Origin: a bacterium
Lineage (GTDB): Bacteria > Patescibacteriota > Minisyncoccia > Moranbacterales > UBA2206
Assembly: GCA_029567195.1 (NCBI GenBank)
Contig: JAKQLJ010000017.1
Coordinates: 1-49,443, forward strand
Length of the DNA stretch: 49,443 nt
Reading direction: 5' to 3'
Part shown: positions 898-15,057 of the stretch, in pieces
How positions within the stretch are numbered: the stretch's first letter is position 1
Layout of the letters: every line of letters starts with the position of its first letter
The notes under the pieces: generated by a model
Seen by the model: only the letters and a program-made list of their open reading frames with translations
The model's database searches: none
Told to the model about the DNA's origin: nothing
Position numbers and translations under genes: made by a program

Positions 898-969
898 GGC
901 CTCATCGTCTATCGGTTAGGACATCAGGTTTTCATCCTGAAAAGAGGGGTTCGACTCCCCTTGAGGCTA
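898..969 (+). tRNA. tRNA-Glu(TTC)
   Basis: Acceptor GGCCTCA/TGAGGCT, anticodon arm TCAGG-TTTTCAT-CCTGA, T-loop GGTTCGACT. Confidence 0.95.
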
Positions 970-1129
970 CACACTAAAATGAGGTTAATTCAAATCCTTG
1001 TTTTTTGTTGCCTTTGGTGAAGGCTGGAACTTTTTGATCGTTGATTTTTTTTAACTTGCAATTATTAATTTTTAATGATTTAATAAATTGCCAACTTCTT
1101 TAACAACCAACTAAAAGGAGATTATAGAT

Positions 1130-1351
1130 ATGGAAATCAGGGTGGAAGTCGAAATCAACAGTTGTAGCGATTGTAATAAACATTATCTCTACACATGCGA
1201 AGGTTCATTTTGCAAACACCCTAGAATACAGGAATTACTTGGGGGAAAAAACGGTCTGATCAGTAATGGCTTCGTTGGTAAAGGATTTCCTGCATGGTGT
1301 CCTCTCAAGCCTGAAAATGAAAATACTGATTTGAGAAAGTATCTGAAGTAA
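1130..1351 (+). CDS. Small Cys/His-rich hypothetical protein (possible zinc binding)
   Basis: AAAGGAG RBS; CSDC...C...CKHP...FPAWCPL; followed by a terminator. Confidence 0.7.
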   Translation: MEIRVEVEINSCSDCNKHYLYTCEGSFCKHPRIQELLGGKNGLISNGFVGKGFPAWCPLKPENENTDLRKYLK

Positions 1352-1385
1352 TAGCCAAATAGGTATTGTGATAAATATCTATAGG

Positions 1386-1415
1386 AACGGTCGAGATTAA
1401 TCCCTTGGCCGTTTT
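1386..1415 (+). terminator. Intrinsic terminator
   Basis: AACGGTCGAG/CTTGGCCGTT stem plus T run. Confidence 0.6.
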
Positions 1416-1617
1416 AAATTTTAATTAAAACACAACATTGAAATTCTTTGACTTCCTTCCACTTATATTAATGTGTTCTATCCTCTAATGGCAGATATAA
1501 TAATGATATTTAAGCGATATTTTCTGTATATTTCATTTGTTTTCCGAATAATTGCCACTCTTTTAGTTCCGTAATAAGCTGGTTCCAAGAGTTTCCAACT
1601 TAGGCTACGAATTTACG

Positions 1618-1644
1618 AAAAATGGCTACAGTCAGCCATTTTTT
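1618..1644 (+). terminator. Terminator hairpin just after att core 1602-1608
   Basis: AAAAATGGCT-acagtc-AGCCATTTTT. Confidence 0.6.
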
Positions 1645-1810
1645 GTTTATGCTATTGACTTATATTAGTTTTTATGATAAGCTTTTTTGTTGATGAAGTT
1701 CTTTCACATGTCGAGTTGCCAATCATAAATTTGATTTTTTGAATTTATATTTAGCGACTCAAGTTAAAGAAATTATATGCATATAACCAGATGAAAAAAG
1801 GAGGTTGGAT

Positions 1811-2416
1811 ATGTATTACAGGAGCAAGACTTTTGATAATATAAATGTGAAGTTCGGATGTCTTCCTAACGGTCTGCCCGGGAAGATAATATCTCTCAGG
1901 GGAATCGGAAAAACAATGGTATTTCCAAGCTCAGGGTTTAACCCTATGATAGGGAAAAGTTATTGCTGTTTTCTGGTAATAGCAAATACCCAATACATAG
2001 AAGGAAGTAATTGTTTTCCGGTTGCGCATGCAACTGCTTACAGTGATGACGAAGCTGGCTCGGGAGAAGGTTTCACCCATACTTGGAAAAATCGTCACAG
2101 AGAGGTAGGAACTTCTTTGGCTGATTTGGCCATCGGTCTGGCTGGCATTCGTGAGCAACTTCCTGATCAGCGAAAGATCGTGAACCTCGTCGCTGTGCGG
2201 GATTATAAGAGGGCGGTGGTTGTTTTCGCTCCTCAATACCCTGGTCGTGATCCTGTGGTCGATAACTTGCCGTCGATGAGGTTTTTCTACACCAAGGACA
2301 AGCAAGAACTCATTCCTGGAAAGAAATACCGGGCTGAAGAAATTTCAGCCGTTCGCACCGGCAGAAGAAATGCAAGAAATGTGGAAATTGTGGAGGTTGT
2401 TGTAAGGATTTTGTAA
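1811..2416 (+). CDS. Hypothetical protein (island cargo)
   Basis: GGAGG RBS at 1800-1804, ATG at 1811, 201 aa ORF; family not recognised. Confidence 0.7.
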   Translation: MYYRSKTFDNINVKFGCLPNGLPGKIISLRGIGKTMVFPSSGFNPMIGKSYCCFLVIANTQYIEGSNCFPVAHATAYSDDEAGSGEGFTHTWKNRHREVGTSLADLAIGLAGIREQLPDQRKIVNLVAVRDYKRAVVVFAPQYPGRDPVVDNLPSMRFFYTKDKQELIPGKKYRAEEISAVRTGRRNARNVEIVEVVVRIL

Positions 2417-2471
2417 ATGCCTTCACGTTCTTTTCGTGCATCAAGTTATTCTCGATTAGTGGTGCATTGTG

Positions 2472-2503
2472 AGGCGGGAGAGTTTTAAGCTTCCGCCTTT
2501 TTT
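2472..2503 (+). terminator. Intrinsic terminator
   Basis: AGGCGGGAG/CTTCCGCCT plus T run. Confidence 0.7.
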
Positions 2504-2688
2504 ATTTTTAATACTAAAAAGTAGTTTTCAATTTCTCCCAACCTCTTAATTCCGCCATAATCTGGTTCCAACTATTGAGCAAGCAGGCTACTTTTCAAGC
2601 AAAAAACAACTTTCTGCTGTTTTTTGCTTAATTTGCGGATTTTTTAAGCCATTTGCATAAAAACAAGGAAGTTATTATCATTAATGAT

Positions 2689-3510
2689 ATGGTTAAAAAG
2701 CTTTACAAGAAAGTAAAAAGCGTTATTTTCGCCAATCCGTCGTTGCTATATAAAGAAGAGATCCATCTTACTAATAAACCTTTCTTTTTTCAAGGAACAA
2801 ACGGAGAGGCGATTTTGCTTATTCATGGTTGGACATCGACACCCTACGAAGTAAGGCGGCTGGGTATATATCTGAACGAAAATGGCTATACTGTTTCCGG
2901 TCCGATGCTTTCTGGTCACGGAACCGTGCCGAAAGATCTGGAAAATATAAAGTGGAGCAATTGGATGATGGATATCAAAAAAGCTTACGGAGAGCTTAAG
3001 GAAAATCACGAAAAAGTTTATGTTGGGGGAACTTCTATAGGCGCCAGTCTGGCTATCATGTTGGCTAAAGAAAAAGAGGAAATTCCGGGACTGATTTTGA
3101 TGGCTGCTCCGTATAAGGTAAAATTTGAATTTTTGTCCATTCTTTTCGCCAAAATATTCAGTTTGTTTTTTCGATACAATAAAAAATATTATCCGCCGAC
3201 TTTTGGAGTTTCTACCACCATCACTCGCCTTATTGCTTATCAGACATATCCTGTTTCCAGTGCTTTGGAAACCTTCTCCCTCATTAAAATCGCCCGAAAA
3301 AAATTGGAAAAGATAAAAATGCCGGCGTTTTTAATTCAGTCCAAAAGCGATCATATAGTTTCCAAAAACAGCATGGAAAAAATTTATGACAAAATAGGAT
3401 CAAGAATAAAGAAGAAAAAATATATTCACCGTGCTTACCACACCTTTATTTCTGATATAAAAAACGAAAGCGTTTTTGAAGAAATATTGGATTTTATAAA
3501 AAGCAATTAA
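2689..3510 (+). CDS. Alpha/beta-hydrolase carboxylesterase / monoacylglycerol lipase-like
   Basis: LLIHGW oxyanion motif, GHGT, nucleophile motif GTSIG, Asp in SKSDHIV, His in AYHT. Confidence 0.88.
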   Translation: MVKKLYKKVKSVIFANPSLLYKEEIHLTNKPFFFQGTNGEAILLIHGWTSTPYEVRRLGIYLNENGYTVSGPMLSGHGTVPKDLENIKWSNWMMDIKKAYGELKENHEKVYVGGTSIGASLAIMLAKEKEEIPGLILMAAPYKVKFEFLSILFAKIFSLFFRYNKKYYPPTFGVSTTITRLIAYQTYPVSSALETFSLIKIARKKLEKIKMPAFLIQSKSDHIVSKNSMEKIYDKIGSRIKKKKYIHRAYHTFISDIKNESVFEEILDFIKSN

Positions 3511-3548
3511 ATTATCATTACGGCGAGTCTTTATTTGTGGTGAATGAT

Positions 3549-4715
3549 ATGAAAATAGCTATTTTCACCAACAATTATCTTCCCAATCCTTATGGCGTTT
3601 CAGCTTCCATTGAAACTTTTCGCCATGAGTTGGAACGTCTGGGTCATACTGTTTTTATTTTCGCTCCCAAATGGCCGGGATATACTGATGAAAATAAAAA
3701 CGTTTTTCGTTATCCGGCCATCGATATAGAAATTAAAATCCGGTTTCCCATAGCCATCCCGTATTCTCTAAAAATCAGTAAAATTATTAAAAAGCTAGAT
3801 ATTGATGTGATTCATGCCCAGCATCCCAATCTTTTGGGAGGGGCAGCCATGAAATGGGCGAGAAAGCTTGCCCGCCGACGAGGCGGGAAAAAAATTCCCC
3901 TGGTCTTCACCTGGCACACTCTCTATGACCAATATACAAACTTCGTGCCTTTTTTGCCGTCTAAACTTTCCGCTTGGTACATCATCAAAAAGGCGGTTAA
4001 TTTTGCCAACAAAGCTGACGCTGTTGTAGCGCCGACTGACTCCATTATTCCTGTTTTGAAAAAATGGGGGGTAAAAAAAGAAATTGTTCCCGTAGCCACG
4101 GGGGTGATGGAAAAAGAATTCGAAAATCCCGATCGAAAATTAATCAGAGACAAATTCAATATAGCAGATGATGAAATTCTGTTGCTTTTGATTTCCCGTT
4201 TAACTAGTGAAAAAAACGTGGAGTTCGTTCTTGCCTCCATAAAAGACATTTTGAAAAACCGCCAAAATGCGAAATTATTGATTTCTGGTGGCGGATATCT
4301 GGTGCCAAAAATAAAAGAATTCATCAAGCAGGAAAAATTAGAAGAAAAAATTATTCTTACCGGAGTGGTGGAAAGGAAGGAAATTAAAAATGTTTTTGCT
4401 GCCGGAGATATTTTTGTTTATGGCTCGAAATCGGAAACCCAGGGAATGATTTTGACGGAAGCCATGTATTCCGGACTTCCTGTGGTGGCTGTCAACGCTA
4501 CCGGCTCCAATAGCTTGGTGTTAAATAATGCCAGCGGTTTTTTAGTGAAAGAAGACAAAAAAGAGTTTGGAAATGCCGTGGAAAAATTGATAAACGACAA
4601 AGATTTACGCCAAAGGTTCGGCGAAGCAGGCAAAAAAATCGCCCAGGATAATTTTACCAGCGCCATTTGCGCCAAAAAGATGCTGGGGGTGTATGAAAAG
4701 TGTCTGAACCACTGA
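3549..4715 (+). CDS. Glycosyltransferase family 4 (diacylglycerol glucosyltransferase-like)
   Basis: MKIAIFTNNYLP..GV, HTLY, SRL..EKN and ETQGMILTEAM motifs. Confidence 0.9.
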   Translation: MKIAIFTNNYLPNPYGVSASIETFRHELERLGHTVFIFAPKWPGYTDENKNVFRYPAIDIEIKIRFPIAIPYSLKISKIIKKLDIDVIHAQHPNLLGGAAMKWARKLARRRGGKKIPLVFTWHTLYDQYTNFVPFLPSKLSAWYIIKKAVNFANKADAVVAPTDSIIPVLKKWGVKKEIVPVATGVMEKEFENPDRKLIRDKFNIADDEILLLLISRLTSEKNVEFVLASIKDILKNRQNAKLLISGGGYLVPKIKEFIKQEKLEEKIILTGVVERKEIKNVFAAGDIFVYGSKSETQGMILTEAMYSGLPVVAVNATGSNSLVLNNASGFLVKEDKKEFGNAVEKLINDKDLRQRFGEAGKKIAQDNFTSAICAKKMLGVYEKCLNH

Positions 4716-5184
4716 TTAGCACTGATGGGCACATGATGACACTTGATTTAAGAAAATGGAAAAATATATAAACAAAAATTATTATAAATCAGATATAACT
4801 GCAAAAATAATCGGTTGTGCCCAAAAAGTTCATCGGCAACTTGGCAACGGTTTTCAGGAAGTGATTTACCAAAGATCTCTAGAAATAGAATTCGAGAAGG
4901 AAAAATTAAAATTTGAAAGAGAGAAAGAAATGGATATATTTTATGAAGATAAGTTAATTGGCAATAGAAGAGTGGATTTTCTTGTTGATAAGGATATTAT
5001 GGTTGAATTGAAAGCAATAACGAAATTAGAAGATGTGAATATTGCGCAACTCATAAATTATATCGAAGCTTATAAAGTTAAAGTTGGTTTACTTATTAAT
5101 TTCGGAACAAAAAGCCTGCAAGTAAAAAGATACATAAAATAATTTCAGTGAAATCACGTGTGCTCAGGTGATAATCAGCGGTTC
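4706..5184. repeat. About 40-bp imperfect inverted repeats (4706-4746 and 5144-5184) flanking the GxxExxY gene
   Basis: GAACCACTGATTAGCAC... versus reverse complement of the right flank GAACCGCTGATTATCAC... Confidence 0.7.
4756..5142 (+). CDS. GxxExxY protein (PD-(D/E)xK nuclease-like)
   Basis: LGNGFQEVIY, RVDFLV..IMVELKA, AQLINY, GLLINFG. Confidence 0.92.
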   Translation: MEKYINKNYYKSDITAKIIGCAQKVHRQLGNGFQEVIYQRSLEIEFEKEKLKFEREKEMDIFYEDKLIGNRRVDFLVDKDIMVELKAITKLEDVNIAQLINYIEAYKVKVGLLINFGTKSLQVKRYIK

Positions 5185-5188
5185 TGAT

Positions 5189-7321
5189 TTATTCCAAATG
5201 AATATGTTTTGAAAACCTTTCAAGTTCGTCTGCCAAAAGCGGATGTTTTTTTAATCGGGGATCAAGATGCATGATGCTTTGCGCTTCTTCACGGGCGCAC
5301 TTAACAAGTCGGATATTGGTAAGATTTTCCATAGTGATGTCAGGCAAACCTGATTGCAGAGTCCCAAAAAATTGTCCGGGACCCCTAAGCTCAAGATCGA
5401 TTTTGGAAATTTCGAAGCCGTCATTGGTTTTTTCCATTGCCTTGAGCCGGGAAACGGATTTTGTAGAAGAATTTTCCGTGAAAAGAAAACAATACGACTG
5501 ATGTTCTCCTCGGCCGACGCGGCCGCGGAATTGATGAAGCTGAGACAGGCCAAACCTCTCGGCATTTTCAATGATCATTACAGTGGCATTAGGGATATCA
5601 ATTCCGACTTCTACGACTGAAGTAGAAACCAGGATTTGAGTTTTTTTGTTTTTAAATTCCTTCATAATCTTTTCTTTTTCTTTGGCTTTTAACCGGCCAT
5701 GCATAAGACCGATTTTAAATTCGGAAAATATTTCAGATAATTTTTTATACTCTTCAGTGGCGGCCTTGACTTCAGACAAGACTTTTGATTCCTCAACCAG
5801 CGGAAAAATAACAAAAATCTGCCGACCAGAAGCAATCTCATGCCGGATAAAATTATAAATTTCTTTTCGTCCGGCCGGAGTGACGATCTTAGTGACGATC
5901 GGTTTTCTGTTGCGCGGCATTTCATCGAGAATCGAGAGGTCCAGACTGCCAAAAAAGGCAATAGCCAAAGTTCTTGGAATAGGGGTGGCGGTCATAGTGA
6001 GGAGATGGGGAATGGTATTATTTTTACCGTCACTTATATGCATAGTTTCACCCTGAAGCATAGCGCGTTGAGCGACACCGAAACGATGTTGCTCATCGAT
6101 AATAACCAAGGCTAAATTTTTGAATTTCACGTCTTTTTGAATCAGGGCGTGAGTGCCGATAACCAGATTTGTTTGGCCGGTGGATATTTTTTGGAGAAGA
6201 CCACTTCTCTTTTTATCATTCTTATGAAAGCGAGAATCCAGACTGGATCCCCGATCAGGTCGGGGATGACAATTAATAAGTTTATACGAATTAGTCAGCA
6301 ATGCAATATTAAAATCATAATTTTCAAACAGCTTACAAAAGCTTTCAAAATGCTGGCGTGCCAAAACTTCCGTCGGCGCCATAATAGCCACCTGAAAACC
6401 TGAAGAAATAGCCTGGAGAGATGAAATGGCGGCGACAATAGTCTTTCCCGAGCCAACGTCTCCTTCCAACAGCCGGTTCATCGGTTTGGATTTTTCCAGA
6501 TCCTTTAAGATTTCAAAGGAAGCTTTTCTTTGGGCGTCGGTTAATTTGAATGGCAGACGGGACACAAAATTTTTAATGAGCTCTTCCTCGAATGATATTC
6601 TTATGGAATTATTTTTATCCCATTGGTTTTTTATTTCCAGAGCCTTAAGCTGAACCAGGAACATTTCCTGGAAGGCGAATCGTTTTTGCGCTCTGATAAG
6701 CTTTTCTTTAGAATCGGGAAAATGAATTTGACTTAGGGCGGTATGAATATCATAAAGGTTAAATTTTTTCCTGATTTCAACCGGTAGGACATCGGGAATT
6801 TCACGGGCTGAAATGAGAAGCGGTTTTATCTGCCAACGGATCCATTTGGAAGAAATACCCGAGGTTTCGCTATAGATCGGAACCAGCCTGCCGGTGTTGG
6901 TTGCGTCCCGCGAAGCTTTTTCCCAAGCAGGACTGTTCATTGAAAAATATTTTCCGCGAATTTCCAATTTTCCTGACAATCTGACAATCGCTCTTTCCTT
7001 AAGGCTTTCCAAAATAAAAGGCTGGTTGAACCAAACGGCTTTTAGAGGTGTGCCGTTCTTATCTTGTAAAGTAATTTCAACAACGGTCATTCTGCGCTTA
7101 AAAATACGATTCAACTTCGTTTTTGTTATTTCTCCTTCAACTGTCACGCTTTCACCCAGATGGTCCTGGCTCAGTTCGACGGTTTTAGAAAAATCATCAT
7201 AACGAAAGGGGAAATAAAAAAGGAGATCCCGAACCGTCAGAAGGCCCATTTTTTCTAAAACCTTCTGGTATTTGGGAGTTATTTTGGGAATGGATTTTAG
7301 GGGGGAATCTGGACGAATCAT
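5189..7321 (-). CDS. recG: ATP-dependent DNA helicase RecG
   Basis: Wedge domain, MNRLLEGDVGSGKT, DEQHRFGV, MTATPIPRTL, QFRGRVGRG, DLELRGPG. Confidence 0.97.
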   Translation of the reverse strand: MIRPDSPLKSIPKITPKYQKVLEKMGLLTVRDLLFYFPFRYDDFSKTVELSQDHLGESVTVEGEITKTKLNRIFKRRMTVVEITLQDKNGTPLKAVWFNQPFILESLKERAIVRLSGKLEIRGKYFSMNSPAWEKASRDATNTGRLVPIYSETSGISSKWIRWQIKPLLISAREIPDVLPVEIRKKFNLYDIHTALSQIHFPDSKEKLIRAQKRFAFQEMFLVQLKALEIKNQWDKNNSIRISFEEELIKNFVSRLPFKLTDAQRKASFEILKDLEKSKPMNRLLEGDVGSGKTIVAAISSLQAISSGFQVAIMAPTEVLARQHFESFCKLFENYDFNIALLTNSYKLINCHPRPDRGSSLDSRFHKNDKKRSGLLQKISTGQTNLVIGTHALIQKDVKFKNLALVIIDEQHRFGVAQRAMLQGETMHISDGKNNTIPHLLTMTATPIPRTLAIAFFGSLDLSILDEMPRNRKPIVTKIVTPAGRKEIYNFIRHEIASGRQIFVIFPLVEESKVLSEVKAATEEYKKLSEIFSEFKIGLMHGRLKAKEKEKIMKEFKNKKTQILVSTSVVEVGIDIPNATVMIIENAERFGLSQLHQFRGRVGRGEHQSYCFLFTENSSTKSVSRLKAMEKTNDGFEISKIDLELRGPGQFFGTLQSGLPDITMENLTNIRLVKCAREEAQSIMHLDPRLKKHPLLADELERFSKHIHLE
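6215..6270. repeat. dRS3/RPE-like palindromic element inserted in frame in recG
   Basis: ATCATTC..GAATCCAG-a-CTGGATCCCCGATCAGGTCGGGGATGAC; encodes CHPRPDRGSSLDSRFHKND. Confidence 0.75.
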
Positions 7322-8362: not shown

Positions 8363-8544
8363 CTTCTGGACCCGTCTGCTTCGCGATTCAACTTATTAAT
8401 GGAATAATTTTAAACTTTATTGTTTATTAATGATATATCAATTAAATAGTTAACTCTTGCTGGCAGGCCGCAACCAGACGCTCCCTGCCTGCATGCCTAA
8501 CGGCATGTAAACCGGCAGGCAGGTATCCACTGAGCTATAAGCGC
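8363..8544 (-). pseudogene. Fragmented duplicate of tRNA-Arg(GCG) interrupted by palindromic insertions at 8372-8468 and 8484-8523
   Basis: Exact tRNA segments cttctggac, cgcaaccagacgctc and tatccactgagctataagcgc separated by hairpin elements. Confidence 0.85.
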
Positions 8545-9252: not shown

Positions 9253-9383
9253 TTTTTTGATTTTATTCTAGCTAAATATTATCACAGTTGAATTTAAATG
9301 ACTAATTAATAAAATCCGGGGTTTACAAAGACCCTTATAATTGGTAATATGATGCTTATGGGATTAAGCCAAAGCGGGTTTTT

Positions 9384-9470: not shown

Positions 9471-9608
9471 CCTTCAATCCGTCATATTGGATTTTCGGTT
9501 TGACAAAGTTCGCAGTAGTTTTGCGAAGACGACCAAGCGATCTCGGCGTAATATATCAAAATTTTTTGGGGGCATGTGAGTGTTTGTATTTTAGTTCTGT
9601 AGAAAAGC

Positions 9609-9695
9609 GGAGGAGTGCCCGAGTGGTTTAAGGGAACAGTCTTGAAAACTGTCGTATCGGAAACGGTACCGTGAGTTCGAATCTCACCTCCTCCG
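9609..9695 (+). tRNA. tRNA-Ser(TGA)
   Basis: Acceptor GGAGGAG/CTCCTCC, ACAGT-CTTGAAA-ACTGT, long variable arm. Confidence 0.94.
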
Positions 9696-9783: not shown

Positions 9784-9843
9784 GAAGTTTCTCTGGCAGA
9801 TATTTACATGGTTATAATTATGTAAAAATGGTATAATAGAGCT

Positions 9844-11016
9844 ATGGAAAACGACCAAAAACATCTTAACTATAATGACACTATCAATCTCGGTTCTTAT
9901 TATACACCAGAGGTTATTGTGGATTTGGCTTATTCCATTTTGCAAAAAAATATTCCAAACATTAAATATTTTACAATTTTAGATTCGTCTTGCGGATACG
10001 GTTCATTTTTAGCAAAAAAAGATATTGCAAAAAGATGGGTTGGAGCAGATATTGATCAAGAGGCTATTTCTGAAGCCAAGAAAATAATTGGCGATATTGA
10101 TTATATCCATCTAAATTCACTCTCAAATGTTTGCCGCAAAAATCTTACAATTAGAAATGATGAAAAACTTATAGTCATAGGCAATCCGCCATATAATGAC
10201 ACCACATCCATAATTAGGAATTCTATAAAAGATGTTTCTATCCAAGACAAGATTGATACTGACATAAAAACCAGAGACTTGGGAATGTCGTTTTTGCTTT
10301 CTTACGATAAGCTCAAAGCAGATTATATTTGTGTTTTGCATCCCTTATCGTATCTAATTAAAAAAGCAAATTTTTCGTTACTTTCAAAATTTTCCAGAAA
10401 CTATAAATTAATTGACGGAATAATTATAAGCAGTCATGAGTTTTCTAATACCTCTCGAGGCATGGCCTTTCCCATCCTAGTAGCTTTTTACAAAAGAGAT
10501 CAGAGGGGAATGACTTATGATCATATTCAAAATTATAAATTTAAGGTTAAAGATGATGGCTCTTTCTGTTTGAATGATTTCGACACCATAGTTAATTATG
10601 TCCAAAAATATCCAAATAAAAAATATTTGAATAAAAACGACAAGCCAGTCGCAAAATTTTGGACGCTGAGAGATATAAACGCACTCAAGCGCAATCGTAC
10701 TTTTATTGATTCTGATACCTATAACACCGTTTATGTATTAATGGAAAAACTCCCTTATTATTGTTATATTGATGTTTTCAAGCAATACGCAGATAGGATG
10801 CCATATTTTATTGGAAATTGTGATGTAATAATTGATAACAAAAAATTTAATGAGATAAAAGAATGCTTTGTTGCGCAAAGTATTCACACAAATCCCATTT
10901 TAAAAAATAAATTTAAATTTAGGGAAATTCCTAATGCTAAATTAAAAATAGAAAAATATTTTAAGGAATTATTAGGTAGTAAATTAGGTGAAAAATATGC
11001 CAAAAATTTTAATTAA
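9844..11016 (+). CDS. N6-adenine DNA methyltransferase (M.PabI-like)
   Basis: GSYYTP, SAM-binding ILDSSCGYGSF, catalytic GNPPY; overlaps the downstream restriction gene. Confidence 0.88.
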   Translation: MENDQKHLNYNDTINLGSYYTPEVIVDLAYSILQKNIPNIKYFTILDSSCGYGSFLAKKDIAKRWVGADIDQEAISEAKKIIGDIDYIHLNSLSNVCRKNLTIRNDEKLIVIGNPPYNDTTSIIRNSIKDVSIQDKIDTDIKTRDLGMSFLLSYDKLKADYICVLHPLSYLIKKANFSLLSKFSRNYKLIDGIIISSHEFSNTSRGMAFPILVAFYKRDQRGMTYDHIQNYKFKVKDDGSFCLNDFDTIVNYVQKYPNKKYLNKNDKPVAKFWTLRDINALKRNRTFIDSDTYNTVYVLMEKLPYYCYIDVFKQYADRMPYFIGNCDVIIDNKKFNEIKECFVAQSIHTNPILKNKFKFREIPNAKLKIEKYFKELLGSKLGEKYAKNFN

Positions 11017-14310: not shown

Positions 14311-15057
14311 ATGCTGGAACAAGAACTGCAAAAATTGGGATTGTCGGATAAAGAGGCGAGAATATACCTAGCTTCGCTTCAGCTTGGCAAATCGCCGGTT
14401 CAGGAGATTGCCGAGCAGGCGAAAGTTAATCGTGGAACGGCTTATGATATCATCCGGTCTTTAATGAATAAGGGTCTAATGAGCTCATTTGATCAAGGCA
14501 AAAAAACCTATTTCACGGCCGAATCGCCGGAGCGGCTTTCTAGTCTCATAAAAATCCAAGGAGAAGAACTAAAGCTTAAGGAAAAGGAATTTTCCAAATA
14601 TCTACCGGAGCTGCGTTCGATGTATGGATCGGCGGATAATAAGCCTAAAGTGAAGTATTATGAAGGCAGAGAAGGCATACTTGCTATTCAGGAGGAATGT
14701 CTTAAGGTGAAAACAAAAAATATATATGGGATTACATGCCTTGATACAGTTGCTAATTTGTTTCCCGAAACATTTAAATATTATTCACCAAAAAGAATAT
14801 CCAAAGGAATACAATCAAAAGTTATTTATACGACAATAAATGTGCCCCCGCTTAACCATGAGGATGACAAAATATCTCTTCGCGAAATGAAGCACATTCC
14901 TCATGAAGAATTTCCTTTTTCTATAGATATAACGATTTTTGATAATAAAGTTGCTTTTAGGTCATTAAATGAGGAAAAACCAGGCGGAGTTATTATAGAA
15001 GATAAACAGATTGCTGAATCTATGGTGGCAATATTTAACCGACTTTGGGAAAAATGA
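14311..15057 (+). CDS. TrmB-family HTH transcriptional regulator
   Basis: LGLSDKEARIYLASL...EIAEQAKVNRGTAYDII..L.NKGL; C-terminal YYEGREGI and IFDNKVAF. Confidence 0.88.
   Translation: MLEQELQKLGLSDKEARIYLASLQLGKSPVQEIAEQAKVNRGTAYDIIRSLMNKGLMSSFDQGKKTYFTAESPERLSSLIKIQGEELKLKEKEFSKYLPELRSMYGSADNKPKVKYYEGREGILAIQEECLKVKTKNIYGITCLDTVANLFPETFKYYSPKRISKGIQSKVIYTTINVPPLNHEDDKISLREMKHIPHEEFPFSIDITIFDNKVAFRSLNEEKPGGVIIEDKQIAESMVAIFNRLWEK

Follow-up and report, generated by a model that had tools for sequence, protein, structure and literature searches.

Two short units behind a tRNA-Glu gene

The stretch of DNA analysed here, which we call the window, comprises 49,443 nucleotides (contig JAKQLJ010000017.1 of assembly GCA_029567195.1) from a bacterium of the order Moranbacterales within the Patescibacteriota. 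Downstream of its tRNA-Glu(UUC) gene lies an array of two units, unit 1 (971-1608, 638 bp) and unit 2 (1609-2591, 983 bp), each of which carries an orphan gene and ends in an element of about 70 nt that stops at AGGCTAC, the tRNA's 3' end. From our comparisons with related genomes and protein collections, we conclude that these scars are very probably attR-type remnants, namely the severed tails of large serine recombinases (LSRs). The locus as a whole is best explained, with a probability of roughly 0.8, as one attB-type junction followed by two attR-type junctions of an LSR family that carries its attachment site attP within its own gene.

The tRNA-Glu gene (898-970, plus strand, ARAGORN) ends in the first copy of the AGGCTAC core (964-970). 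Its portion from the T-arm to the 3' end (about 945-970), which includes GGTTC at 948-952, would form the B half of the LSR attB site. The heptamer by itself is not rare, as the window contains four copies on both strands where 2.11 are expected and 20 of 100 shuffled sequences reach four; three of the four, at 964, 1602 and 2585, are on the plus strand. GGTTC recurs at 1581-1585 and 2564-2568, and thus precedes the core by 11 nt in the tRNA and by 16 nt in both further copies. The similarity of these two copies extends beyond the heptamer (79% identity over 34 nt, 1555-1588 versus 2538-2571), and both can be read as peptides on the minus strand, VA*VGNSWNQLITELKEWQLFGKQMKYTENIA from 1608 down to 1510, with an in-frame TAA at 1602-1600, and VACLLNSWNQIMAELRGWEKLKTTF from 2591 down to 2514, which keep a serine through different codons (TCT and AGT). 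As putative attR P arms they are called relic 1 (1510-1608, core 1602-1608; hidden Markov model E 5.7e-17) and relic 2 (2514-2591, core 2585-2591, tail intact; E 7.3e-17). A tblastn search with both peptides found no additional copy in the window's own genome. The original prediction, made from the letters of the window, had described the recurrence of AGGCTAC, the shift of GGTTC by 5 nt, the homologous minus-strand peptides, the hairpins and the sizes of the units, and all of these are seen in the sequence.

Unit 1 contains the open reading frame (ORF) ORF73 (1130-1351, plus strand), which encodes a Cys-rich orphan of 73 aa, is preceded by a strong Shine-Dalgarno sequence (GGAG 8-11 nt upstream) and is followed by a terminator-like hairpin at 1384-1415 with a T-run (1384-1425, plus strand, terminator scan). 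Unit 2 contains ORF203 (1811-2416, plus strand, ORF list), an orphan of 201 aa counted from the ATG at 1811, also with a strong Shine-Dalgarno sequence; the GC hairpin and T-run behind it (about 2473-2503, plus strand) were read by eye and not flagged by a simple terminator scan. Neither product matched a family in Pfam, PHROGs or PADLOC. The nearest Atlas clusters of ORF73 are small, mainly viral hypotheticals, which is a lead only, and the Atlas search returned no family for ORF203, again leads only. ORF203 forms the GC peak within the first 8 kb (0.45-0.49) and has distant homologues in four of the 318 other genomes of the order, distributed over three families; none of the four has a relic or a tRNA within ±1.5 kb.

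Both relics are followed by a hairpin in what would be a B'-type flank. Directly after core 1, at the left end of unit 2, the arms are 13 nt long and 92% complementary (1615-1627 and 1634-1646) and are flanked by an A-run and a T-run; after core 2 the hairpin is perfect (2597-2608 and 2618-2629, 12 nt arms, 100%). At the relic junctions of the window, a hairpin flanked by A and T runs begins about 6-10 nt on, and hairpins with T-runs of like style were seen by eye at most of the listed relic junctions of other genomes and at three of six attR junctions (L193, L195 and L196). A promoter scan gave 11 promoter-like sites versus 5.8 expected, at consensus level only. Of the claim that the units are self-contained, the part on a ribosome-binding site, one ORF and a terminator-like hairpin in each stands, and the parts on promoters and on a boxA-like motif are at the level of consensus matches. 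No recombinase was found inside unit 1 or unit 2 by ORF list, domain annotation or tblastn.

The parent recombinase gene and its attachment sites

A profile of 35 relics, compared with 1.84e9 representative proteins at E<=1e-3, gave 70 matches. All but one (69) are only 30-173 aa long, and the few that were inspected resemble ORF calls over relics. The only longer match, P0067, is an N-terminally cut protein of 355 aa with the domains PF07508 and PF13408, whose last 23 residues match the profile. Its family comprises 80 proteins, mostly of about 550-570 aa, with PF00239, PF07508 and PF13408. Their C-termini include three of the WN type, 42 that read ..MV(T/A)PRGIEP.., which is the translated antisense strand of a tRNA T-arm, seven that are otherwise antisense-like and 28 others. 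The fragment P0010 led to a second family, whose 87 longer relatives measure 505-622 aa (the P0150 series is annotated with PF00239 and PF13408). Strict patterns assign an intact WN tail to at least 19 of these and a tRNA-antisense tail to at least 29 and leave 39 unclassified, although several of the latter fit one or other class by eye. The intact tails, for example ..LVHFMLNHWNQIITELKQWQELRESFCLAA, are near-identical in style to the relics of the order. BLAST alignments with intact forms cover 88-95% of P0010 and those with swapped forms about 75%, which places the break at the same residue. PF00239 and PF07508 were also found on the LSR in locus L081. That the peptide is a severed LSR C-terminus, as originally proposed, is thus supported by the profile comparison with recombinase C-termini, with P0067, P0076, P0081 and the P0010/P0173 family as evidence: the intact forms of these LSRs end in it, and most copies instead have the antisense-tRNA tail of the integrated form.

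The two kinds of tail can be followed in DNA. Locus L087, with an intact LSR gene, and the 85%-identical L088 diverge right after AGGGTCAC, the end of tRNA-Glu(CUC), and the reading frame of L088 stops inside the antisense tRNA; L171 (fused) and L172 (intact) show the same pattern. Among relatives of P0081, an antisense tRNA lies at the LSR stop in 52 of 79 loci, which belong to many small-genome lineages according to their records: tRNA-Pro in 34, Leu in 6, Glu in 4, Val in 4, Gln in 2, and Ala and Ile in 1 each. Several of the other 27 loci also read into tRNA-like antisense sequence. A metagenome scan with P0071 gave only two loci. By these alignments, attP is predicted to lie about 25-35 codons before the LSR stop, within the recombinase's own gene, in an LSR family of small-genome bacteria of the Candidate Phyla Radiation (CPR) type, and the intact and tRNA-fused loci bear out the claim that the recombinase gene spans attP.

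Complete elements were found within the order. A search of 319 genomes with P0173 detected a homologue at E<=1e-60 in 18, the window's own genome not being among them; the LSR of G252 is only 44% identical to its closest homologue elsewhere in the order. Six of eight regions with a P0173-like LSR consist of a tRNA-Glu or tRNA-Ala gene, the LSR gene in antisense, cargo and a single relic at the far end, with spans of about 4.6, 5.0, 5.9, 6.6, 11.6 and 13.7 kb. Of the remaining two, one is rearranged (G107) and one lies on a contig that ends within the LSR (G129). In the complete elements the LSR overlaps the tRNA end, with tails such as ..DKSSLVAPRGIEPLLPG, and attL has a conserved P' arm (TAAAGAGGATTTATCAG..), which neither the window nor the LSR-less units examined contain. 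An LSR at the tRNA combined with a relic at the far end identifies the relics as attR P arms and places attP inside the LSR gene, and the attR assignment of the original prediction is corroborated by these six elements. LSR genes of relatives abut or overlap tRNA genes of the tRNA-Glu class in antisense. In the window, the core at the tRNA end is followed by a B'-type flank and no LSR-derived P' arm, and when compared with the attL sequences of complete elements, the tRNA-side junction at 970 reads as an unoccupied attB-type site.

The geometry of the sites, assessed by sequence on left half-sites only, is in agreement with that of known serine integrases. The accessible text of Rutherford et al. 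2013 (PMC3783163) states that the distance between the zinc-ribbon-domain motif and the centre of the site is 5 bp shorter for attB than for attP. In every printed pair, for Glu as well as Ala, the distance from (G/A)GTTC to the core end is 18 nt in tRNAs and 23 nt in relics, and for GGTTC the distances are 18 nt in L088 versus 23 nt in L087. The +5 shift, which had been attributed to the published attB/attP geometry, therefore recurs for tRNA-Glu, tRNA-Ala and the pair L087/L088. The motif DNA of the relics is a Trp-Asn codon pair that is invariant in the peptide, so one DNA stretch doubles as coding sequence and predicted binding motif. The core shared by attP and attB is 4-8 nt long and always includes CTAC, GTAC or CCAC; it is 7 nt in the window. 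TTGGAAC, part of the left-end module of unit 1 that is described below, was considered as an inverted half-site and rejected as a general P' or B' motif, because only 5 of the 37 relic flanks contain it, at about +45-56 nt.

Many intact-tail LSRs (P0150, P0152-P0154, P0157, P0169 and P0173) have been recorded solely on contigs of about 2.4-3.7 kb, which would fit very small free elements made up of an LSR and about 1-2 kb. The 8-kb contig L172, which carries an intact-tail LSR, has no terminal overlap, and its circularity is not shown. On the tail side of the intact LSR P0081 (L087, 8867-14406) are unknown ORFs and a primase/helicase-like protein of 629 aa with Toprim and AAA_25 domains, a neighbour which suggests that the free element replicates. 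At L193 (~10202-10252), L194 (~9960-10010), L195 (~9256-9306) and L196 (~4556-4606), 50 nt of LSR 3' coding sequence abut the tRNA, and the last LSR codons (..INQ..DKSSLV) contain an 11-bp inverted repeat, GATTTATCAG..CTGATTTATC, beside the tRNA end. Judged by its sequence, the integrated element may supply this hairpin in place of the native tRNA terminator. In the rearranged region of G107 (L197, G107:C22, 2897-10863), the open frame of the LSR (588 aa) continues through a degenerate tRNA fragment (..VAPRGIGPVAAKQ..), relics point both ways and an intact tRNA-Glu is found on the opposite side, an arrangement that is possibly due to site-specific inversion.

Relics across the order and the possible movement of units

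A DNA search of 40 relatives matched essentially only the tRNA, plus a few short weak matches. The exception was G018, a genome of another genus with the same synteny, in which about 1.1 kb separates tRNA-Glu from a third copy of the element, with an unrelated 238-aa ORF in between. When the three peptides were combined into a profile, 122 of the 319 genomes gave matches at E<=0.5, and at E<=1e-4 the relic profile marks 64 places in 52 genomes (hand count of the listed matches). Nearly all matches begin at profile position 1, in open frames of 20-95 aa, and no plausible ORF continues upstream of the break in any locus examined. Many genomes have several relics 1-4 kb apart on one strand; contig G262:C30 carries five. 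A tRNA-Glu or tRNA-Ala(CGC) gene is found upstream on the opposite strand, 485-10,614 nt away, for 16 of 37 sources, in a set in which most loci covered only ±1.5 kb around the relic. The bases at the break track the tRNA, being GTCCAC for Ala, G(G/T)CTAC for Glu and GTAC where tRNA-Glu ends in GGTAC (G262 and G145).

The relics have kept the imprint of a protein. Of all six frames, the proposed one shows the lowest ratio of nonsynonymous to synonymous differences (pN/pS 0.446) in a set of 36 distinct relics; its entropy is highest at third positions (1.17, versus 0.97 and 0.71), and the conserved region reaches as far as the stop codon, some 90 nt away from the break. Together, these features indicate an element shaped as coding sequence. 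Viral scans with two subgroup alignments gave nothing real; six matches lay inside one tape-measure-like ORF of 1,826 aa and were dismissed as chance, and the second scan had no match. Rfam detected only tRNAs in the related loci tested, and transfer-messenger RNA as the identity of the motif GGGGAATCGAAC.. behind several junctions was dropped, as neither ARAGORN nor Rfam supported it.

Units without an LSR appear as discrete insertions. At 13 or more distinct places a relic lies 485-1,505 nt behind the tRNA, a spacing too short for a 1.5-kb LSR gene, and tblastn with nine LSRs at E<=0.01 found no LSR fragment in loci L001-L054, in the window or in its own genome. Positions 5711-6763 of the G025 locus and 4946-5998 of the G217 locus are 89.5% identical (1,055 nt); exactly between tRNA-Ala and this shared segment, G025 has an extra LSR-less unit of 1,010 nt, which ends in its own relic. 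Similar permutations are present at tRNA-Glu in G202, G243 and G239. These comparisons show that it is next to the tRNA that new units differ, and that the core forms their limits. The junctions in arrays are of the type B|B', which occurs once, or P|B', and never B|P'.

In the mechanism that we propose, the LSR of the free element would end in an amphipathic tail, ..(N/R)SWNQ(I/L)IxEL(K/R)xWxxL.., and the DNA of its Trp-Asn codons, GGTTCCA, would mimic the T-loop motif GGTTCGA of the tRNA, with a distance to the crossover that is 5 bp greater. By recombination within the four terminal bases of the tRNA (CTAC here), the LSR body would be fused to the antisense tRNA, yielding a short ..VAPRGIEP.. 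tail, and the original tail would stay behind at the far end, as attR. The two units of the window would accordingly be composed of a B'-type left end with a hairpin terminator and a P-type right end, without an LSR or a P' remnant, and new units would enter at the tRNA, pushing older ones outward. LSR-less units might then move in cis. A transient LSR element would integrate at the tRNA and excise with the distal attR, taking the unit along with its relic as a new tail, and would later excise with the inner attR, leaving the unit behind. Such capture and deposit via alternative attR sites needs only attP x attB and attL x attR, so canonical reactions suffice. It would also explain the B'-type left ends, the addition of units next to the tRNA, the missing LSR debris and the lasting coding quality of the relics. 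We regard it as a tentative explanation, at somewhat less than even odds.

Several observations count against this interpretation of the locus. No close relative is available, the genome being the sole member of its genus in the collections searched, so the units of the window are assigned by end homology and not by an observed empty site. Neither a joint nor a circle junction was seen at 970, 1608 or 2591 in the contigs of four public runs, which are low-depth data and say little either way about excised circles. The contigs of run X1 cover the whole region, and runs X2 and X5, from other studies, contain identical pieces of both units together with the junction between the tRNA and unit 1 (957-1290). 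No cognate LSR was detected in the window's own genome (87% complete) by domain, tblastn or P0173 searches, which agrees with the description of the units as recombinase-less and leaves the search for an integrase acting in trans without a candidate there. No shared motif could be defined in the right half-sites (B' and P'). Relic 1 is dead as a coding tail owing to the TAA at its third codon, and five more strong profile matches have in-frame stops (six counting relic 1), so not every relic can serve again as a tail. Among the complete elements examined there is no composite LSR element with an internal attR, and no cargo homology was found between complete elements and the LSR-less units of related genomes, which leaves capture and deposit without direct support. 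In addition, canonical reactions do not explain the origin of the first LSR-less unit.

The units might instead be immobile fossils of full LSR elements (4.6-13.7 kb) that were stripped by ordinary deletion, with stacking caused by repeated integration after each deletion restores the tRNA|flank site. The order does contain complete elements with exactly one relic, its genomes are small, and the coding imprint is as one would expect if the relics had been deposited independently by separate LSR genes; the stop in relic 1 and the lack of mobilisation in the contigs are also as this would predict. However, random deletion should leave 3' fragments of the LSR beside the tRNA or older relics, and tblastn detected none in about 40 loci at E<=0.01. 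The left ends of the cassettes are unlike the conserved P' arm, starting right at the core, the extra unit of G025 is bounded exactly by the core on both sides, and units as small as 485-640 bp recur. We therefore consider decay by deletion unlikely.

Mobilisation in trans, the 'integron-style' route, in which mini-circles with a relic|flank site would be reinserted at the tRNA by an LSR from elsewhere, is more improbable still. It would suit the discrete, core-bounded units and the many arrays that have no cognate LSR on the same contig, given that only about 8 of the 64 strong relic places have one. A mini-circle would, however, carry a P|B' site of the attR type and require recombination of attR-type x attB, whereas the accessible text of PMC3783163 reports two pairings for serine integrases, attP x attB and, when a directionality factor is present, attL x attR, and no recombination of others. 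Moreover, the left ends of the cassettes share no P'-like motif, and conservation at the protein level as far as about 90 nt from the core would not be maintained in a site that functions as DNA only.

That these are not attachment sites at all, and reflect chance matches to the tRNA end, tRNA repeats of tyrosine integrases or fragments of host genes, deserves hardly any credence: the exact tRNA match is only 7 nt, AGGCTAC is not rarer than chance in the window and the genome has two tyrosine recombinase genes, but beyond the core the repeat is the tail of an LSR gene and not a tRNA fragment, it stands at the far end of LSR elements in the same tRNAs, and the core co-varies with the tRNA species.

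The two tyrosine recombinase genes are Xer-sized PF00589 genes on contigs C38 and C20, and a partial match to a tyrosine recombinase (E 3.4e-4) is located at a contig end (L016, G000:C11:4092-4181).

The left end of unit 1 (971-1035, plus strand) is a 'D-like' module, a hairpin with a T-run followed by ..CTGGAACTTTTT, that is kept across genera behind tRNA-Glu or relics. It is 75% identical to the G018 locus and is also present after 5 of 37 relic junctions (G262 and G098), and the attR flank of the complete element L191 resembles it by eye. The module, AAAATGAGGC..GCCTTGTTTTTTGT..AGTTGGAACTTTTT, occurs in several genera after the tRNA or after relics, with further copies in L013 (~9500-9565) and L047 (6305-6362, 7618-7666, 11457-11514, 15576-15642 and 16728-16784). 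It may be an ancestral tRNA-Glu terminator and promoter travelling with the units.

Around the array, a sigma-70 family factor is encoded upstream of tRNA-Glu, and the array is followed by the conserved host gene of an alpha/beta hydrolase (2653-3510), a GT4 glycosyltransferase gene and recG, in synteny with G018. Between the glycosyltransferase and recG, the window has an ORF of the PD-(D/E)XK_3 family (4756-5142, 128 aa). In the syntenic G018 locus (L013), the glycosyltransferase gene (5251-6495) overlaps recG (3086-5263), so there is no room for this ORF.

Insertions of another kind were seen at the same tRNA genes. In L013 (G018:C12), an element of about 65 nt (..TTTCCGGTTTTTCAGCCAGAGGCTGACCACCCTCCGGGTGG and the 3' side of the tRNA anticodon arm) is present in three copies (~8420-8480, 9565-9640 and 9800-9885). 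One lies in a 5' tRNA half, which it interrupts at the anticodon loop, another stands before a duplicated 3' tRNA half and another follows the relic, an arrangement that looks like a second, unrelated insertion system at tRNA-Glu. In L047 (G262:C30), a 195-nt segment between tRNA-Glu and the first unit (6107-6302) ends in ..AATCCCATATGCGGTAC, which resembles a tRNA 3' end. Its predicted folding energy is -59 kcal/mol (z -3.97, 0 of 200 shuffles), it has no Rfam family, and its first 84 nt recur after relic 3 (14566-14649). A similar segment in G202 (L033) is 140 nt long, and an 18-nt tRNA fragment forms its end. In L053 (G025:C3), partial 5' and 3' copies of a different tRNA-Ala allele (4569-4603 and 4738-4772 in tRNA orientation) flank the intact tRNA-Ala. 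As at the tRNA-Glu of G018, insertions of the tRNA-fragment type thus coexist with the LSR system.

Comparison with known systems and significance

The locus has the hallmarks of an LSR system, namely resolvase catalytic, recombinase and zinc-ribbon domains in the parent protein, the attL/attR layout, a short core and the 5-bp shift. The closest parallel is found in the ssrA islands of Dehalococcoides. As described in the accessible parts of McMurdie et al. 2011 (PMC3146451), these lie in tandem downstream of a tRNA-like gene, with short direct repeats and a serine recombinase of about 540 aa on the reverse strand by attL, and 15 islands without an integration module were proposed to be cis-mobilisable and moved by accretion. 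Islands stacked at a tRNA-like gene, a serine recombinase at attL and integrase-less members are common to both systems, and the cis route proposed above matches the accretion model. The Dehalococcoides islands differ in their 20-bp ssrA repeat, a second small recombinase module and their large size, and those parts of the report (PMC3146451) do not mention an att site inside the recombinase ORF. Here, in another host group, the units are single-gene units of 0.5-1.5 kb that end in a coding relic and use ordinary tRNA genes as targets.

Recombinase-less, att-flanked units in the ICESt1/ICESt3 system reportedly stack and co-excise with a neighbour via the distal att site. Like such cis-mobilisable elements, the units of the window lie between att sites without a recombinase, and related autonomous elements exist. 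The elements of ICESt1/ICESt3 differ in that they involve conjugative elements with a tyrosine integrase at the 3' end of fda, and in that their co-excision is experimental, whereas ours is deduced. In staphylococci, the staphylococcal cassette chromosome (SCC) and ccr-less pseudo-SCC elements stack at the 3' end of rlmH through the serine recombinases CcrA/B; their target is protein-coding, two recombinases are involved and no tail relic is known.

An attachment site inside the integrase gene is otherwise a trait of the archaeal SSV-type suicidal integrases, which target tRNA genes and have their gene split by integration, so that each end of the integrated element carries one part of it. The accessible text of a 2021 review (PMC8371274) describes them as tyrosine recombinases and exclusively archaeal. 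The in-gene att site is shared with them, but not the tyrosine fold, as the parent here is a serine recombinase. In addition, the SSV-type split lies nearer the N-terminus, whereas the LSR would lose its last 25-35 residues and gain about 10-15 from the antisense tRNA.

The tycheposons of Prochlorococcus are tRNA-adjacent islands in which successive integrations push older ones outward and scatter remnants, and 910 of 937 use tyrosine recombinases, with a minority having a large serine recombinase (accessible text of bioRxiv 10.1101/2020.12.28.424599). They differ in their partial-tRNA repeats and fragmented-integrase remnants, and that text mentions no in-gene attP.

The likeness to integrons consists of an array of single-gene units added at the promoter-proximal end. 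Integrons, however, have a tyrosine integrase gene adjacent to attI, folded attC sites and mostly promoterless cassettes, none of which is present here: no recombinase was found in or beside the array, and the cassette ends are coding relics without an internal palindrome. The original term 'integron-style' is therefore apt for the stacking and the tRNA-proximal insertion of LSR-less units, both of which are supported by comparison, and does not extend to an integron integrase or attC.

The stacking of islands at tRNA or tmRNA genes was known before, from tycheposons and, for serine-recombinase islands with integrase-less members, from the accessible parts of PMC3146451. Our full-text literature search, which left subscription journals largely outside, found no serine recombinase with an in-gene attP, no tRNA-antisense tail swap and no relic-marked mini-cassette array in these bacteria, and these three features appear to be new. 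A severed LSR tail next to a tRNA-end core is a marker that can be recognised from sequence alone and that gives base-exact limits of acquired units, which is useful where most cargo defies annotation. The natural, precisely defined attB/attP pairs in tRNA genes are also useful for studying how serine integrases read their sites.

For the biology of these bacteria, the findings mean that tRNA genes act as hot spots at which serine, and not tyrosine, integrases operate. The combination of an in-gene attP with a C-terminal swap would be a bacterial serine parallel to a feature regarded as restricted to archaea (accessible text of PMC8371274), and suggests a regulatory role for the tail. More speculatively, and with considerable doubt on our part, an LSR clade across CPR-type bacteria could use the exchange of its C-terminal helix for a tRNA-antisense tail as a switch of integration state, with the scars as a platform for cassette exchange, where a visiting LSR element could excise with whichever scar it uses and adopt that scar as its tail. 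If so, the tail swap could control directionality or stability, the scars would be kept under protein-level selection, and archaeal suicidal integrases as well as integrons would have a counterpart among serine recombinases. In G262, the cargo of the arrays comprises, besides an HD-domain protein, the metabolic genes dapB and pyrF and genes for a lysA-like decarboxylase and an aminotransferase, and the system may therefore shape the metabolic repertoire of these reduced genomes.

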